IMG/VR virus record: IMGVR_UViG_3300020426_000002 | Location: 1-35,879 of that record | Strand: one strand, 5' to 3' | From: a virus | Length of the DNA stretch: 35,879 nucleotides | In this document: in pieces, positions 179-35,879 of the stretch | How positions within the stretch are numbered: the first letter of the stretch is position 1 | Layout: each line of letters begins with the position of its first letter | Position numbers and translations under genes: made by a program | Notes under the pieces: generated by a model | Databases searched by the model: none | What the model was told of the DNA's origin: nothing | The model's input: only the letters and a program-made list of their open reading frames with translations

Positions 179-1378
179 ATGAAAGCATCTATTAAGCTAT
201 ATAAAAACGATGGGGCCAGCGAATATGGTTTTCCAGTAAAGTTAATTATTTCTCACAGTGGAAAAACCAGGCGTAAAACAATTGGATATGCGCAGGAAGA
301 TGATTGGGATCTTACTTCGCAGCTTCCGCTTCCTTCACATGATGATTTTGAAAATTTATATGGTACAATATTACTTATTAAGAAAAAAGCCGTTACAGCT
401 GAATTCAGGTCTTTAGAAAAACATGATAAAGCTTTTGACTTTCTTATGGGTGAAAAGCAAAAACCAGTTTCCGATTTCTATAAGTATGCAGATCAATTAA
501 TCGAACGCTTAAGAAAAAATGGGAATACCGGCAATGCGCGCGTTTATGAAATTGCAGCAACGCAACTTGAAAATTTTAGGCCGCAATTAAATCTAAAAGA
601 TATTACGCCACAATTAATGGTGCAATTTAAAGAATCGAAAAAGGCTGAAGGTTTAAAAAATTCTAGTATTAAGCATTATTTGCAAACTCTTAGAGCTATT
701 TATAACAATGCGGTAAAAAATGGAATGGTGGAAGATACCAATGCCTTCCAGAACTTATTTAAAGATATTCCTGTTAAAACCAGACGCGCACGAAATTATT
801 ACCTGGATGAAGAAAGAATCGCAATTATGGAAAATTGGGAATTCCCGGATAAACCAAATTATGAACTTGCACGGGATATGGTATTGCTTCAGTTTTATTT
901 ATGTGGTGCAGATTTTATGGATATTGCTTATTTAAAAAGGGACCAGATCCAAAACGGCCGAGTGTTTTTGAGCCGCGCAAAATTGGGAAAAAAAGCAGAT
1001 GAATTTGATATCCTGTTACCCGAAAAAGCAAAAACAATTATCGAAAGGTGGGAAACTAAAGATGATAAAATTTACTTTTTTGATTTTCCCCGTAAAGAAG
1101 TACAGTATCGTAATTTTAGGACCGCTCTTTATCGAGGGTTAAACCGAATGAAAAAATATAAGGGCTTAACATTACTACCTAAAGATGGGAATTTCACCTT
1201 TAAAGTGATGCGCCATAGCTTCGCAACTTTGGGAAAATTTAAACGTATAGAAGAAGATCTACTTCGGGAACTAATGGGGCATGAGCGCAGCGATATCGAT
1301 ACGATTTACAAAGATAAATATCCTGAACCTGAACGGGATGCTGCGCAATTGGAAATTATTAACCTTACCAATCGTTAG
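179..1378 (+). CDS. int: Tyrosine recombinase / phage integrase (Bacteroidota type with N-terminal arm-binding domain)
   Basis: 399 aa, adjacent to att. C-terminal motifs are MRHSFAT (HxxR) and GHERSDIDTIYKDKY (His ... catalytic Tyr). The N-terminus MKASIKLYK...FPVKLIISHSGKTRRK is typical of arm-binding domains. Confidence 0.88.
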   Translation: MKASIKLYKNDGASEYGFPVKLIISHSGKTRRKTIGYAQEDDWDLTSQLPLPSHDDFENLYGTILLIKKKAVTAEFRSLEKHDKAFDFLMGEKQKPVSDFYKYADQLIERLRKNGNTGNARVYEIAATQLENFRPQLNLKDITPQLMVQFKESKKAEGLKNSSIKHYLQTLRAIYNNAVKNGMVEDTNAFQNLFKDIPVKTRRARNYYLDEERIAIMENWEFPDKPNYELARDMVLLQFYLCGADFMDIAYLKRDQIQNGRVFLSRAKLGKKADEFDILLPEKAKTIIERWETKDDKIYFFDFPRKEVQYRNFRTALYRGLNRMKKYKGLTLLPKDGNFTFKVMRHSFATLGKFKRIEEDLLRELMGHERSDIDTIYKDKYPEPERDAAQLEIINLTNR

Positions 1379-3229: not shown

Positions 3230-3415
3230 ATGACGGTCAAGCAAATTTATATACAGTGGGAGCGATTGAAAAATAACAAAAATGATTACTCCAAAGAAGA
3301 TCTAAGTAAAGAGCAGAAACGGCTTCGTTCTGAAATGAAAAAAATAATGAAACTTAATTTTAGATTAGAATTAAGCGAAGAAAAAGCAATTAAAAAACTA
3401 TTCCGGTCTACTTAG
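3230..3415 (+). CDS. Small basic helical protein, paralog B
   Basis: MTVKQIYIQWERLKNNKNDYSKEDLSKEQKRLR is a tandem paralog of 2958-3146. The 3' end overlaps the convergent repressor gene by 18 nt. Confidence 0.6.
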   Translation: MTVKQIYIQWERLKNNKNDYSKEDLSKEQKRLRSEMKKIMKLNFRLELSEEKAIKKLFRST

Positions 3416-3889
3416 ATTTCGATCTTCTTTAAATTCTTCTTCGTCCTGGGTAAGATCATCTTTCATATCTTCCCAAAGTAATATTTGGTTAACCATTTCG
3501 TGAAGCTCTGTAAGCTGCTCTGCAATTAAATTTAAATGCTTGTCCTGTAAGTTGAGCTTCTTTAAAAGTCTTTGGTACACTGCTTCTGCGATTTGATCCT
3601 GTATCGATTCTTTTTTTGGGTAATCTTGGCGGTGCTCTCTTAGCACAGTATCTTGTGCGGCTTCTACAGTGTACTTTTTGTCTTTTTCTACTTTTCCCAT
3701 GATCCAGTTAATGTCATATTCTGGAAAAGCCTTGACTATTTTTATAGCGGTTTTATGACTTATGGATTTTGTTTCCCCTCGTAATATTTTATATAAGGGT
3801 TCTCGGTTCGCACTTATCTTATCAGCGAATTGGCTTACTTCGAGACCTTGCTCTAGTAAGATTTGATTTATGATGTTGGTCGGTTTCAT
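3398..3889 (-). CDS. CI-like prophage repressor (N-terminal HTH, C-terminal helical/acidic domain)
   Basis: 163 aa. HTH region is LEVSQFADKISANREPLYKILRGETK. It is divergently transcribed from the early operon across an AT-rich switch region. Confidence 0.7.
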   Translation of the reverse strand: MKPTNIINQILLEQGLEVSQFADKISANREPLYKILRGETKSISHKTAIKIVKAFPEYDINWIMGKVEKDKKYTVEAAQDTVLREHRQDYPKKESIQDQIAEAVYQRLLKKLNLQDKHLNLIAEQLTELHEMVNQILLWEDMKDDLTQDEEEFKEDRNLSRPE

Positions 3890-4038
3890 ACTTCAAAAAT
3901 ATAAATAATTGTTCAGTAGTACATTATATATACTAATTTATAATCGTTATAAATTAATTAATTTTTTGATCTAAATAGTTAACTAATTGATCTATTGTAA
4001 TATATTTGTCTTGTCAAACCTTTCTAAAAAAGGTAATT
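3890..4038. promoter_or_regulatory. Divergent lysis-lysogeny switch region
   Basis: Contains TAGTAC-N8-TACTAA at 3917-3936, the 10-bp perfect palindrome TAGTTAACTA at 3976-3985, and the rightward -7 box TATATTTG at 4001-4008, which matches the Bacteroidota TAnnTTTG consensus. Confidence 0.55.
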
Positions 4039-4326
4039 ATGTTACAAAACAACGCAAAAACAAAGTTAACCAAAAATACCAAGTGTATAACGCCTAAGGA
4101 CATTATTGTCGCTGAATGGTTAGAAGCTATTGATATTTTAAACGAGTTTAAAAAATTAGGTTTTGAAACCCGGGAAAGCTTTGTGAATGTAGTGCAGCAA
4201 TTAGATACTGAGTACTTAGGGTATAAAAAAGCAATGAAGCTCCAGCAGTTTTGGGCTTTTAGACTTCGTAACGAATACGTTAATCAGGATCTAAGGAAAA
4301 TTCTTGAACAATTAAAAGCCGAGTGA
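4039..4326 (+). CDS. First early-operon protein, hypothetical (Cro/antirepressor position)
   Basis: The first ATG after the -7 box is at 4039; the track start at 4006 is a TTG inside the promoter. 95 aa with no recognisable motif. Confidence 0.6.
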   Translation: MLQNNAKTKLTKNTKCITPKDIIVAEWLEAIDILNEFKKLGFETRESFVNVVQQLDTEYLGYKKAMKLQQFWAFRLRNEYVNQDLRKILEQLKAE

Positions 4327-22851: not shown

Positions 22852-22925
22852 CGCAACGTGGAGCAGTTGGTTAGCTCGCTTGGTTCCTTTCCAAGAGGTC
22901 ACAGGTTCGAATCCTGTCGTTGCTA
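22852..22925 (+). tRNA. Phage-encoded tRNA-Arg(CCU)-like gene with atypical features
   Basis: Cloverleaf: acceptor CGCAACG/CGTTGCT, D-arm GAGC-AGTTGGTTA-GCTC, anticodon arm CTTGG-TTCCTTT-CCAAG (CCT at 22886-22888), variable AGGTC, T-arm ACAGG-TTCGAAT-CCTGT, discriminator A. Atypical points are a C1:U72 mismatch and U at position 37. Confidence 0.7.
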
Positions 22926-23033
22926 CGAAATGCTTTAAATAAAATTAACGCTTAAAAACTATTTAGCTAAAGGGCAACATTTGGTACGATATCCATACGC
23001 TTTAACGCCGATCTGAATCAGTTTTCTACTGAA

Positions 23034-32602: not shown

Positions 32603-32989
32603 ATGCAACTAACAAAGAATTTCAAATTAAGTGAATTCGCATCAAAAGATGGTGCGGAAACTCCAAAGGAATTAATACCAAACTTACAAGAGCTTGCGAA
32701 TAACTTACAAGCGCTAAGGGACGATCTCGGTGTGCCCATTCACATTAATAGCGGTTATCGGTCACCAGCACATAACAAAGCCGTTGGTGGTGCTCCAAAA
32801 TCACAACACAAAGAAGGAAAAGCAGGAGATATTACTGCAAAAGGTTTCACGCCAAAGCAGATCCAGGCGCGAATTGAAAAGCTAATCGCTGAAGGAAAAA
32901 TGAAAAACGGTGGCTTAGGTCTGTATAACACTTTCGTGCATTACGATGTGAGAAACTATGCGGCACGTTGGGATAATTCAAATATTTAA
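32603..32989 (+). CDS. Endolysin, peptidase M15 (D-Ala-D-Ala carboxypeptidase-like, M15A) family
   Basis: FKLSEFASKDG..., INSGYRSPAHNKAVGGAPKSQHKEGKAGDI and VHYDVR give the H-D-H zinc ligand pattern. Confidence 0.88.
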   Translation: MQLTKNFKLSEFASKDGAETPKELIPNLQELANNLQALRDDLGVPIHINSGYRSPAHNKAVGGAPKSQHKEGKAGDITAKGFTPKQIQARIEKLIAEGKMKNGGLGLYNTFVHYDVRNYAARWDNSNI

Positions 32990-34233: not shown

Positions 34234-34268
34234 AAAAACCCGGTTGTTATGCCGGGTTTAGTTTTTTT
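34234..34268. terminator. Bidirectional intrinsic terminator between the lysis operon and the reverse-strand right-arm genes
   Basis: The stem AACCCGG / CCGGGTT is flanked by an A-run upstream and a T-run downstream, so it reads as hairpin plus U-tract on both strands. Confidence 0.75.
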
Positions 34269-34350
34269 AATTATATTTGCCTTATACAAGTTGTATGCTA
34301 TGATTTCTATAAAGTTATCATAGTAAGGCTTAAAAGCCGAAGTTGAAAAA

Positions 34351-34695
34351 CTATATGCCCTGACTTTGTTGGGGCTTTTTTATTTCATAAATATTTCTGG
34401 TGTGAAAGTTTAAAGGATCAAAACCAGTTCCATTTCCAAAGTTGTTTGAAAATTGTTCTCTTGTGTATTCTGTTTTTTCAAGATTAACGATATTTACCTT
34501 TTTATAACCAAATCCTCTTGTACCCCTTCTTTTGCATTCCAATACAGGCCAATCTAATATTTTAAATTTATCTTCATGAGAAGAAACAGTTTCCATTTTT
34601 TCTGCTGTCCATATTGTACCATCTGAATTACTTATTACAACTTTTCCTCTAAAAATTTTAGAAGCTTCTTCGTTTGTGAATTTATTAGTTTTCAT
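34351..34695 (-). CDS. Hypothetical 114-aa protein (right-arm accessory gene)
   Basis: An intact ORF 20 nt downstream of the 126-aa gene on the same strand. No recognisable motif. Confidence 0.6.
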   Translation of the reverse strand: MKTNKFTNEEASKIFRGKVVISNSDGTIWTAEKMETVSSHEDKFKILDWPVLECKRRGTRGFGYKKVNIVNLEKTEYTREQFSNNFGNGTGFDPLNFHTRNIYEIKKPQQSQGI

Positions 34696-34715
34696 GATAT
34701 TTTATTTTTTTAATT

Positions 34716-35096
34716 TTATTGAGCAACTTTTAAAAATTCGAAAGCAACACACCAGGCTTGTTTATCTGAAATATTATTTCCTTCTAAAGCTCTATCTGCG
34801 ATATCTGCTTGAAACCCTAATGAATTTTCAGCAACAACATTTAAAATATGTTCTGCATTTTCTGTCCATTCAATTCTATTATTAAATTTACCACCATAAT
34901 TTTTAGCACAAATTGCATTGAAAACTTCTTTGGCACTCCATTTCGCCATATCTACTAATATAGTAGCAGCTTTTCTAGCACCTTTCCAAGCCATTTTCAA
35001 AGCTTCTTTTAATCTGGCAGAATAATTACCTTCAAGAGTTGAAGCTATTAAGTGAGCAGTTTTCATTAAAAGTGATTTGTTGATTGAAGCTTTCAT
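34716..35096 (-). CDS. Hypothetical 126-aa helical protein (right-arm accessory gene)
   Basis: KTAHLIASTLEGNYSARLKEALKMAWKG and ISDKQAWCVAFEF recall recurrent phage/plasmid helical modules that I cannot name. Preceded by promoter-operator copy 1. Confidence 0.6.
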   Translation of the reverse strand: MKASINKSLLMKTAHLIASTLEGNYSARLKEALKMAWKGARKAATILVDMAKWSAKEVFNAICAKNYGGKFNNRIEWTENAEHILNVVAENSLGFQADIADRALEGNNISDKQAWCVAFEFLKVAQ

Positions 35097-35122
35097 AATG
35101 TTTGTTTTAAATGTTATTACTT

Positions 35123-35187
35123 ATTGTTCTACGGTTCAAATATAACATAACTATTTAGTTATGCAATGGTAAATCTAAACTTTAACA
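35123..35187 (-). promoter_or_regulatory. Promoter-operator cassette, copy 1
   Basis: On the minus strand: TTG (35166-35164), a 19-nt spacer, then TATATTTG (35144-35137). The spacer is filled by the palindrome CATAACTA-TT-TAGTTATG (35146-35163). The ATG lies 40 nt downstream. The core is 41/44 identical to 35692-35735. Confidence 0.6.
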
Positions 35188-35382
35188 GTTTAATTTTTTA
35201 GCTTCTTCTTTGATGTAGTTAATCAGCTTTTCCAAATCTTGTTTAGTCCAGTTGTTTCTGGTAGCTTTTGGGGAGTTATTAAGTTTGACAACACCATAAC
35301 TTGTATTGGTAATTTCGGCCAACTTTCGGTTTCCCATGCCAAAAGTATCAGCTATCTTCTTGATTTCTGTAGGGATATCCAT
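35182..35382 (-). CDS. Small HTH-like DNA-binding protein (candidate regulator of the right-arm cassettes)
   Basis: 66 aa. IKKIADTFGMGNRKLAEITNTSYGVVKL is HTH-like. Confidence 0.55.
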   Translation of the reverse strand: MDIPTEIKKIADTFGMGNRKLAEITNTSYGVVKLNNSPKATRNNWTKQDLEKLINYIKEEAKKLNC

Positions 35383-35444
35383 AATAATTGTTATTTTTGA
35401 AGTTCATAATGTTTGAAACATTATTATTACTATTGTTCTAATTA

Positions 35445-35468
35445 GCCCCTCCAGTAGAGGGGCTTTTT
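35445..35468. terminator. GC hairpin (GCCCCTC-cagta-GAGGGGC) with a T5 run on the plus-strand side only
   Basis: Stem at 35445-35451 / 35457-35463, T-run at 35464-35468. It lies 9 nt below the stop of the 64-aa reverse gene. On the minus strand no U-tract follows it. Confidence 0.45.
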
Positions 35469-35471
35469 GAT

Positions 35472-35666
35472 TTACTTCAGAAAAATTACAGCCGTTTCAT
35501 TGCTATAGTCTATCTGTTCAATCGAATGAACCTCAAACCTCGATTCATTAATTTTAATAATCCACCCCTCCTTTGGGAATTCTGGAATTGTTAACTTGAA
35601 CTTAGCGATGTCATGACCGCCTTCTGAAACAAATTTTACGTCGAATACTAATAATTGGTAATTCAT
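35472..35666 (-). CDS. Hypothetical 64-aa protein (right-arm accessory gene)
   Basis: The start at 35666 is chosen by analogy with copy 1: the same AAACATT-ATG context, 40 nt from the -7 box. The longer track ORF (to 35735) would run through the promoter repeat. Confidence 0.55.
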   Translation of the reverse strand: MNYQLLVFDVKFVSEGGHDIAKFKLTIPEFPKEGWIIKINESRFEVHSIEQIDYSNETAVIFLK

Positions 35667-35691
35667 AATGTTTAAAAAATTTAAATTATAC

Positions 35692-35756
35692 ATTGTTCTA
35701 TGGTTCAAATATAACATAACTATTCGGTTATGCAAAGGGTTTTTTAAACTTTAACA
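35692..35756 (-). promoter_or_regulatory. Promoter-operator cassette, copy 2
   Basis: On the minus strand: TTG (35735-35733), a 19-nt spacer, then TATATTTG (35713-35706). The spacer palindrome is CATAAC-N6-GTTATG (35715-35732). The shared TAAACTTTAACA lies at 35745-35756. Confidence 0.6.
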
Positions 35757-35832: not shown

Positions 35833-35879
35833 CTGCCTTCTAAGCAGACGGTCACAGGTTCGAATCCTGTCGCGATCAC
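35833..35879 (+). repeat. attR core: right copy of the 47-bp direct repeat (a duplicate of the tRNA-Arg 3' part)
   Basis: Identical to 1-47. The sequence upstream of it (35790-35832) does not look like a tRNA 5' half, so this is probably the partial copy. Confidence 0.85.

Follow-up and report, generated by a model that had tools for sequence, protein, structure and literature searches.

Among the closest described systems, acr-aca operons carry inverted repeats inside their core promoters (PMC9410906), and Aca proteins also repress neighbouring operons through extra operator copies (PMC9410906; PMC13551039). Bacteroidota are not mentioned in either of these Aca surveys. Here we describe a locus of comparable arrangement in IMG/VR virus record IMGVR_UViG_3300020426_000002, which was analysed over positions 1 to 35,879 (35,879 nucleotides, hereafter the window). 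The locus is a module of four small minus-strand genes near the right end of the window, organized as two operons: operon A encodes a 64-aa protein and a 66-aa helix-turn-helix (HTH) protein, and the second, the cargo operon, encodes proteins of 126 and 114 aa. A model reading the sequence alone had proposed that these genes form a self-regulated accessory module with defence, exclusion or toxin-antitoxin (TA)-like functions (hereafter the original prediction). Our analysis supports autorepression by the HTH protein through a palindromic operator present in both promoters, as judged from sequence conservation, and somewhat favours the view that the module is a self-contained, negatively autoregulated accessory-gene locus built of exchangeable cassettes. 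The coordinates of all features are collected in Table 1.

Two Operons Share a Palindromic Operator

The segments 35123-35166 and 35692-35735, located upstream of the 126-aa and 64-aa genes, respectively, are identical at 41 of 44 positions, and the repeat reaches 80 nt at 83% identity. Read on the minus strand, each copy presents TTG, 19 nt and TATATTTG, which is the Bacteroidota sigma-A -33/-7 pattern. The positions of these -7 boxes relative to the predicted transcription start sites (TSS) of the two promoters, termed P1 (cargo operon) and P2 (operon A), were taken from Flavobacterium psychrophilum, in which the TAnnTTTG box spans -12 to -5 (PMC9723704). The pattern TTG-N18-20-TAnnTTTG has four matches in 35.9 kb, including P1 and P2, and TTTG-N17-21-TAnnTTTG has a single full match in the window, namely P2. 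In both promoters the spacer between the -33 and -7 elements is filled by the 18-bp palindrome CATAAC-N6-GTTATG, and the combined operator-plus-box pattern CATAAC-N6-GTTATGTTATATTTG occurs twice in the window, compared with 0.01 occurrences expected. The two predicted operators differ solely in their central 6 bp. This difference is kept in the sibling loci L001 and L002, and both promoters of the sibling L018 have the CCGAATAG version; siblings are defined here as contigs with the same module (L001, L002, L005, L007, and L018), and relatives as loci with an approximately 40%-identical HTH protein.

The near-identity of the two segments, the resumption of their similarity further downstream (TAAACTTTAACA is found in both copies), the Bacteroidota-type promoters, the palindrome in the spacer and the sharing of one operator by two operons had all been read from the sequence in the original prediction, and each of these readings holds. 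Its statement that the segments lie exactly 40 nt upstream of the start codons is accurate for P1, where the -7 box and the ATG are separated by 40 nt, and is off by one for P2 (39 nt).

Comparison of the window with L001 points to selection on the regulatory elements. The -33 element, the palindrome, the -7 box, and the first ~12 transcribed bases are almost invariant, whereas the neighbouring 64-aa gene has changed at 19 of 65 third codon positions. The 9-nt linker 5' of the P2 -33 element is scrambled, and the AT palindrome upstream of it (TTAAAGTTTAA) is conserved again. Judged by this pattern, the regulatory DNA is constrained. The P1 counterpart of the upstream palindrome (35175-35185) overlaps the stop codon of the HTH gene, and the sequence preceding each promoter is similar to an HTH-gene 3' end. 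No enrichment of the upstream palindrome (TGTTAAAGTTTAA) was detected elsewhere in the window.

The operator palindrome is absent from the CI/Cro-like immunity region of the prophage (3398-4326), and the proposed circuit would therefore be private to the module. An 11-mer from the centre of the P1 operator (CTAAATAGTTA, 35148-35158) occurs once more, at 3971-3981 in the CI/Cro-like intergenic region, flanked by two TTGATCTA direct repeats; this copy is statistically marginal and the operator half-sites are missing there. Scans of viral, genome and metagenome collections for the operator pattern returned the siblings plus one additional locus only, L006 (IMGVR_UViG_3300029565_000245). In this unrelated, higher-GC Bacteroidales-type phage, CATAAC-N6-GTTATG is fused to TTATATTTG (L006:2948-2974) upstream of a 52-aa gene, between two DUF5053 genes and beside a HicA toxin gene; a nearby 136-aa gene was read as HicB-like and has no Pfam match. 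The DUF5053 proteins were considered as possible kin of the HTH family and rejected, since hhalign finds no detectable relationship, and for this reason the L006 match may reflect chance or convergence, or else a link that was not recognised.

A Rare Family of Putative XRE-Type Regulators

The 66-aa protein has no sequence match in Pfam, NCBIfam or the PDB. Its AlphaFold2 (AF2) model, built from a 10-sequence alignment, has a predicted local distance difference test score (pLDDT) of 89 and contains helices at residues 3-13, 18-25, 29-36, and 47-64. Foldseek matches in the PDB include HipB, C.Esp1396I, SinR, Aca1, and P2 C, with template-modelling (TM) scores of 0.5-0.6 and probabilities up to 0.97, and those in BFVD are Cro/C1/XRE regulators with TM scores up to 0.79. 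Nearly all top PDB and named BFVD matches are XRE/Cro-C1 (lambda-repressor-like) proteins, and every one of the top PDB matches is a small, dimeric autoregulator that binds an operator. The modelled structure thus allows us to assign an XRE/Cro-type HTH fold confidently, and the earlier description of the protein as HTH-like was right, because Foldseek returns almost only HTH proteins of the lambda-repressor type.

A full-HMMER search of 1.84 billion representative sequences identified four HTH relatives of about 40% identity, and a subsequent profile search increased this number to eight. No members were found by profile search in the GTDB representative genomes, and no new loci were gained. 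By these sequence searches, the 66-aa protein founds a rare family that is without annotation.

Relatives of the HTH gene occur in a recurrent context. In four of five relative contexts (L008, L009, L013, and L014/L015), a short run of small orphan genes ends with the HTH gene, after which no further gene is called on that strand. For instance, L008 encodes proteins of 50 aa and the HTH protein, counter-oriented between the portal and terminase genes; L009 encodes proteins of 77, 162 and 65 aa, the last being the HTH protein (41% identical), counter-oriented between the capsid module and the portal gene; and L013 encodes two 106-aa proteins followed by the HTH protein. The exception is L010, in which a 72-aa gene and the HTH gene are followed by an 87-aa gene and preceded by a partial 75-aa open reading frame (ORF); a second contig with the HTH gene of L010 has a 133-aa gene in the position of this partial ORF and a relaxase gene downstream. 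The partner proteins in L008, L009, L010, and L013 are mutually unrelated, several of them are strongly acidic, and none of the partners of the HTH relatives has a Pfam domain. In L008 (3690-4001) and L011 (3760-4070), a protein of ~50 aa with a transmembrane segment precedes the HTH gene with overlapping stop and start codons, and further upstream there is a tiny ORF starting with M(K)..KLEI, followed by a GC hairpin.

The locus L009, retrieved by protein homology alone, has a perfect CATAAC-AAAAAT-GTTATG palindrome that abuts a TACATTTG box and lies 40 nt upstream of the HTH operon. This palindrome-plus-box is the sole match in 8.2 kb, and none of 200 shuffled sequences gives one. Conservation of the half-sites together with the HTH protein at 41% identity is the best available evidence for binding of the palindrome by the HTH protein, and supports it. 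The original prediction had named the 66-aa protein as the likely operator binder, and this assignment is strengthened both by the XRE fold and by the recurrence of the half-sites at the L009 promoter. In L008, a different palindrome occupies the spacer of a consensus promoter upstream of the HTH operon.

Tandem Cassettes and Exchange of Cargo Genes

The four small genes of the module are real and under purifying selection, as far as codon comparisons can tell, because the great majority of the changes between the window and its siblings are synonymous or fall at third codon positions. Relative to L001, the 64-aa gene has 22 nt differences (18 synonymous and 1 non-synonymous codons) and the HTH gene has 11 (8 synonymous and 2 non-synonymous codons); the 114-aa gene differs from its L018 counterpart at 17 synonymous and 14 non-synonymous codons, with 22 of 36 differences at third positions. 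Some gene callers start the 64-aa gene at TTG 35735, giving a product of 87 aa; this start lies within the promoter.

Four siblings (L001, L002, L005, and L007) keep the segment comprising P2, the 64-aa gene, the HTH gene and P1 at 90-95% nucleotide identity, and replace the stretch between about position +20 of the P1 leader and the terminator with two unrelated genes that encode very acidic proteins of 114 aa (charge -18) and 76 aa (charge -11). This wholesale replacement of the pair bears out the earlier reading of the 126-aa and 114-aa genes as regulated cargo, and sequence comparison indicates that the second operon is a swappable cassette. In the L018 sibling, the window cargo is present at 93% identity and is followed, immediately ahead of the terminator, by an additional 66-aa gene (L018:1753-1953). 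This gene encodes a diverged HTH-family paralogue (hhalign probability 95.5%, E-value 1.4e-8) and has its stop codon in the terminator loop. Only the last codons of this second HTH gene (EKLNPA*) are kept in the window, at ~34247-34266 by the terminator, and its loss corresponds to a 244-nt deletion bounded by AAAAACTAAA repeats. Because of the second HTH gene in L018, its remnant at the terminator of the window and the sequence resembling the HTH 3' end upstream of both promoters, the locus is best described, at the sequence level, as a tandem array of cassettes, each consisting of a promoter-operator, orphan genes and an HTH gene, with junctions that are the recombination points.

Several additional observations concern the siblings and their cargo. 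L002 is a mosaic in which the 64-aa gene is identical to that of the window and the HTH gene is identical to that of L001. In sibling prophages the module adjoins an intact tRNA-Leu(GAG) gene (L001:5169-5457, L002:187-271), not the tRNA-Arg(TCT) half-site found in the window; integration specificity differs between the siblings and the window while the module stays.

A homologue of the 126-aa protein, 41% identical, is encoded on contig L004, where its gene is followed by an unrelated gene whose product has no similarity to the window 114-aa protein. The C-terminal ~45 residues of the 126-aa protein form a conserved motif, VAENS.GFQADIA..AL....DKQAWCVAFEF.K, which represents an unnamed phage domain; it is found in a 144-aa protein (L004:810-1244) on a contig of small phage-like genes and in the N-terminal part of a 263-aa protein of a human-gut (faecal) phage (L016:2956-3747, MT835674.1), the gene of which is divergent from a small-terminase-like gene.

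At the other end of the cargo operon, the last nine codons of the 114-aa ORF cross the hairpin at 34357-34375, and the sibling ORF stops before the hairpin. The non-coding tail that follows is conserved in L018 and absent from siblings with other cargo. Within 34269-34392, the ~85-nt non-coding stretch 3' of the 114-aa gene contains three small hairpins, with a structure z-score of about -3.2 on either strand. On the plus strand, a TATATTTG box lies at 34272-34279, and the hairpin at 34357-34375 is a canonical terminator with T6 after it, a layout that could produce a plus-strand antisense RNA of ~100 nt against the 3' end of the 114-aa gene.

Proposed Regulatory Circuit

In the proposed circuit, a dimer of the HTH protein would sit on the 18-bp palindrome in the -33/-7 spacer and thereby block RNA polymerase at both P1 and P2. 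Both operons would fire strongly when the HTH protein is absent, for example upon entry into a new cell, and would afterwards settle to low steady expression, including in the lysogen, because the HTH dimer would block RNA polymerase once present. The cargo operon of the window, having lost its own terminal HTH gene, would rely on the HTH protein of operon A in trans.

Two elements between the 64-aa and HTH genes may adjust the amount of repressor. This intergenic region is structured (z-score -4.6) and contains a GC hairpin, the stem of which is kept and the loop altered in L001. The hairpin had been described as having no U-tract on the minus strand, which is correct; in addition, it forms a canonical terminator on the plus strand. 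On the minus strand, it may act as a partial attenuator or stabiliser. Downstream of it, a 19-codon upstream ORF (uORF) has its AUG within a perfect 8-1-8 hairpin (UAAUGUUUCAAACAUUA) and overlaps the HTH start codon out of frame. The leader and start context of the uORF, AAACATTATGAA, is that of the 64-aa and 126-aa genes, which makes it the third, decayed copy of the leader that had been noticed before the HTH gene. The uORF may serve as a translational brake on the repressor; the hairpin over its AUG together with its overlap of the HTH start would keep the output of the HTH gene below that of the 64-aa gene.

Candidate Roles of the Orphan Proteins

Searches of the four proteins against Pfam, PHROGs, NCBIfam, and PADLOC gave nothing above threshold, and sequence searches against the PDB returned no match. 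PADLOC yielded one weak match only, between the HTH protein and PDC-S19 (E-value 0.032, 11 bits). A hit of the 64-aa protein to VapW had an E-value of 0.63. Neither homology of the orphan proteins to annotated PHROG anti-defence families nor a recognised toxin family (Pfam, NCBIfam, PADLOC, PDB sequences) for the 64-aa, 126-aa, and 114-aa proteins was found. Word-indexed homology searches with the 126-aa and HTH proteins recovered their own clusters plus the one 41% homologue only, and tblastn against GenBank phages found nothing for the 114-aa and 64-aa proteins and one weak domain match for the 126-aa protein. No transmembrane segment was detected in the four proteins (the maximal 19-residue Kyte-Doolittle mean is at most 0.82), and Rfam contains nothing significant for the module. 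The original prediction had refrained from assigning the three non-HTH proteins to any family, which agrees with these results, and the profile searches place none of the proteins in a known phage family of housekeeping function. Its label of a defence, exclusion or TA-like module is not supported, given the lack of family matches and transmembrane segments and the unconserved partnerships. The co-occurrence of gene pairs that it had suggested as a check was not found: the partners of the HTH gene differ in every relative and the neighbour of the 126-aa homologue is unrelated.

As a tentative assignment, the orphan proteins may act in counter-defence or in some other conflict between genetic elements, like the products of acr-aca loci. 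The grounds for this proposal are the architecture and the partners, which are small, frequently strongly acidic and not conserved; homology plays no part in it. We rank it first because of the acr-aca-like architecture and because small, acidic, rapidly exchanged partners fit inhibitors better than effectors; it is followed by lysogen defence or exclusion, a non-defence early function, a TA system, and an excisionase.

Several points weigh against the autorepressed cassette model and the counter-defence role. Co-conservation of the operator comes from one independent relative, L009, and the other relatives are truncated upstream or have a different palindrome or no obvious one. The Foldseek E-values of the HTH protein are 0.03-1 at TM scores of ~0.55-0.79; none of the 10 family members matched a Pfam HTH model, and the family profile matched no PDB chain, including the solved Aca proteins, a comparison that covered those of the 14 Aca families that have a solved structure or a Pfam model. 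The family is very rare, with about ten 90%-identity clusters among 5.8 billion sequences, and generalisation is weak for this reason. On the side of the cargo, both window proteins are basic, not acidic, no known anti-defence, defence or toxin family was matched, and the single-sequence AF2 model of the 126-aa protein is unusable (pLDDT 42). Finally, the membrane-peptide partner in L008 and L011 fits exclusion or a toxin as well as anti-defence.

The best surviving alternative, which we regard as unlikely, is a lysogen-expressed defence or superinfection-exclusion moron, in which the 126-aa and 114-aa proteins, perhaps with the 64-aa protein, would protect the lysogen and the HTH protein would set their level. 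The slot itself argues for this possibility, being att-adjacent, variable between siblings and occupied by opposite-strand genes with their own promoters and terminator and with the lower GC content typical of morons; autorepression leading to steady low-level expression is compatible with lysogeny, and the HTH partner in L008 and L011 is a small membrane protein. The proteins themselves fit less well, as none of them matches PADLOC, Pfam or NCBIfam, all four are only 64-126 aa in size and lack enzymatic domains, sensor domains and transmembrane segments, and the two highly acidic 76-114-aa proteins of the siblings look more like inhibitors or mimics than like defence effectors. Moreover, the HTH cassettes of L008 and L009 lie within phage structural modules. 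By analogy with the layout of acr-aca loci, counter-defence appears more likely than defence.

More doubtful still is a secondary developmental switch or early host-takeover operon, with a Cro-like HTH protein for timing and orphan proteins that tune host physiology, replication or lysis timing. The Cro/C1-like fold, the strong promoters, the orphan proteins and the operator that is private to the module and absent from the CI/Cro-like region are all in line with such a switch. It accounts poorly for the complete change of cargo between siblings that are otherwise 90-95% identical, for the deletion of the second HTH paralogue in the window and for the differing location of the cassette between phages.

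A TA system, either with a 64-aa toxin and the HTH protein as antitoxin or as a tripartite system with an HTH repressor and a TA pair of 126 and 114 aa, is improbable. The gene sizes fit, the best fold matches include HipB and Xre-type antitoxins, and palindromic operators in promoters are typical of TA autoregulation; the gene order is no obstacle, since the toxin gene comes first in operons such as higBA and hicAB. However, none of the proteins matched a toxin or antitoxin family, the VapW hit of the 64-aa protein having an E-value of 0.63, and the 66-aa protein is predicted to consist of the HTH and one long helix, with no room for a neutralising domain. The candidate toxin is acidic, and the hairpin and uORF would leave less antitoxin than toxin. 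The HTH gene does not keep the same partners, the gene for the 126-aa homologue is followed by a different gene in L004, and the cargo of the siblings consists of two acidic proteins. The identity of the HTH protein as an excisionase (recombination directionality factor) near attP, which could be suspected from its small size, its basic character, its distance of ~450 nt from the att core and, in the circular phage, the divergence of the module from int across attP, is rejected on fold and context as scarcely credible, since the predicted fold is of XRE/Cro and not winged-helix Xis type, the relatives lie among portal, terminase and capsid genes far from any integrase, and the tRNA-Leu siblings keep the same HTH protein at 97% identity.

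Returning to counter-defence, a bolder version, which we consider speculative and rather unlikely as a whole, is that the 66-aa protein represents the first Aca-like regulator family of Bacteroidota phages, that the cassettes form a recombinase-free stackable exchange platform and that the orphans are new inhibitors of flavobacterial defence. Under such a scheme, every cassette would be bounded by an HTH-gene 3' end joined directly to the promoter or terminator that follows, phages would trade anti-defence cargo through homologous recombination at these conserved junctions, and the inhibitors would be the 64-aa, 126-aa, and 114-aa proteins plus the acidic 114-aa and 76-aa proteins of the siblings. 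Candidate targets in flavobacteria would include type II-C Cas9, type VI-B Cas13b, and restriction systems.

If the HTH protein is an Aca-like autorepressor, it could anchor guilt-by-association searches for counter-defence proteins in phages of Bacteroidota. In addition, the locus provides a compact candidate pair of repressor and operator on the unusual -33/-7 promoters, a possible genetic tool in flavobacteria, and comparison of the siblings displays the exchange of accessory cassettes at conserved regulatory junctions at nucleotide resolution. The practical reach is limited because the HTH family is rare in current databases.

Genomic Setting of the Module

The window is a complete prophage, in which bases 1-47 are identical to bases 35833-35879; this 47-nt direct repeat corresponds to the 3' half of a tRNA-Arg gene. 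Proteins of the window were identified by PHROG profiles, and its exact proteins in NCBI are hypothetical proteins of Zunongwangia profunda (Flavobacteriaceae). Besides the integrase, CI-like repressor and endolysin, the prophage genes include a DnaB-type helicase and tail proteins. A complete tRNA-Arg(CCT) gene is encoded in the middle of the late region (22852-22926) and is distinct from the tRNA-Arg(TCT) fragment of the att site. The module sits between the lysis genes and attR, and its GC content is 30.2%, compared with 35.9% for the whole window. The layout had been described correctly in the original prediction: all four minus-strand ORFs are found where it had placed them, the module is indeed AT-richer, attR is at the right end, and the bidirectional terminator said to insulate the module from the late genes is detected on both strands.

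Table 1. Features of the att-adjacent module and landmark genes of the prophage (positions in the window).
Feature	Position	Strand	Description
Integrase	179-1378		PHROG profile
CI-like repressor	3398-3889	minus	PHROG profile
Endolysin	32603-32989		PHROG profile
Bidirectional terminator	34236-34259		Shared with the late/lysis operon; right-hand cassette boundary
Structured non-coding tail of cargo cassette	34269-34375		Hairpin 34357-34375 plus three small hairpins at 34285-34340
114-aa orphan protein	34351-34695	minus	Basic; cargo gene 2; sibling version 106 aa
126-aa orphan protein	34716-35096	minus	Basic, predicted all-helical; cargo gene 1
Promoter P1	35137-35166	minus	-33 TTG 35164-35166; -7 box TATATTTG 35137-35144; predicted TSS ~35132
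P1 operator (predicted)	35146-35163		Perfect 8-2-8 palindrome CATAACTA-AA-TAGTTATG
66-aa HTH protein	35182-35382	minus	Basic, four-helix XRE/Cro type; last gene of operon A; proposed P1/P2 repressor
19-codon uORF	35348-35407	minus	MNFKNNNYYGYPYRNQEDS; holds the shared leader
GC hairpin	35444-35464		Between the 64-aa and HTH genes
64-aa orphan protein	35472-35666	minus	Acidic (pI 5.2), soluble; first gene of operon A
Promoter P2	35706-35736	minus	-33 TTTG 35733-35736; -7 box TATATTTG 35706-35713; predicted TSS ~35701
P2 operator (predicted)	35715-35732		CATAAC-CGAATA-GTTATG
Upstream AT palindrome	35744-35754		TTAAACTTTAA; ~10 nt upstream of the P2 -33 element; conserved in siblings, linker variable
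attR core	35833-35879	none	Repeat of window bases 1-47; 3' half of tRNA-Arg(TCT)

Comparison with Known Regulatory Systems

The closest likeness is to acr-aca loci. Both are found on mobile elements and have consensus-strength promoters with an inverted repeat inside the core promoter, followed by small unrelated, often acidic orphan genes and then a small HTH gene; in both, the operator is repeated before a neighbouring operon without its own regulator, and the cargo varies between close relatives. The model of the HTH protein superposes on Aca1 (7vjn/7c0g) with TM scores of 0.53-0.58. The differences are that the HTH protein is without sequence relationship to Aca proteins having a solved structure or a Pfam model, that the host here belongs to Bacteroidota with -33/-7 promoters and that no cargo protein is a known Acr. 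By analogy, the locus would work like an acr-aca locus, and we do not claim membership of a named Aca family.

The C proteins of restriction-modification systems, exemplified by C.Esp1396I, are among the best fold matches (TM score ~0.55-0.57, 25-27% identity over ~52 residues); they are likewise small dimeric XRE-type HTH proteins with palindromic operators in their own promoter that time the expression of downstream genes after entry. However, no methyltransferase or endonuclease is found downstream in the module of the window. Moreover, C-box operators serve as both activator and repressor sites upstream of the promoter, whereas here the spacer is filled by a single palindrome, an arrangement suggestive of repression only.

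The Xre/HipB antitoxins resemble the 66-aa protein in that HipB(Lp) is its top PDB Foldseek match and that they autorepress two-gene operons through promoter palindromes. The locus differs from them in having no recognisable toxin and no neutralisation domain, in its unconserved partners and in the acidic character of the putative toxin. With prophage morons, the module has in common its own promoter and terminator, the opposite strand, the lower GC content and the presence/absence variation. Classical morons are usually single genes with constitutive promoters, whereas the locus described here is composed of tandem cassettes under operator control with a dedicated repressor family in common, and the 3' ends of HTH genes mark the limits of the cassettes.

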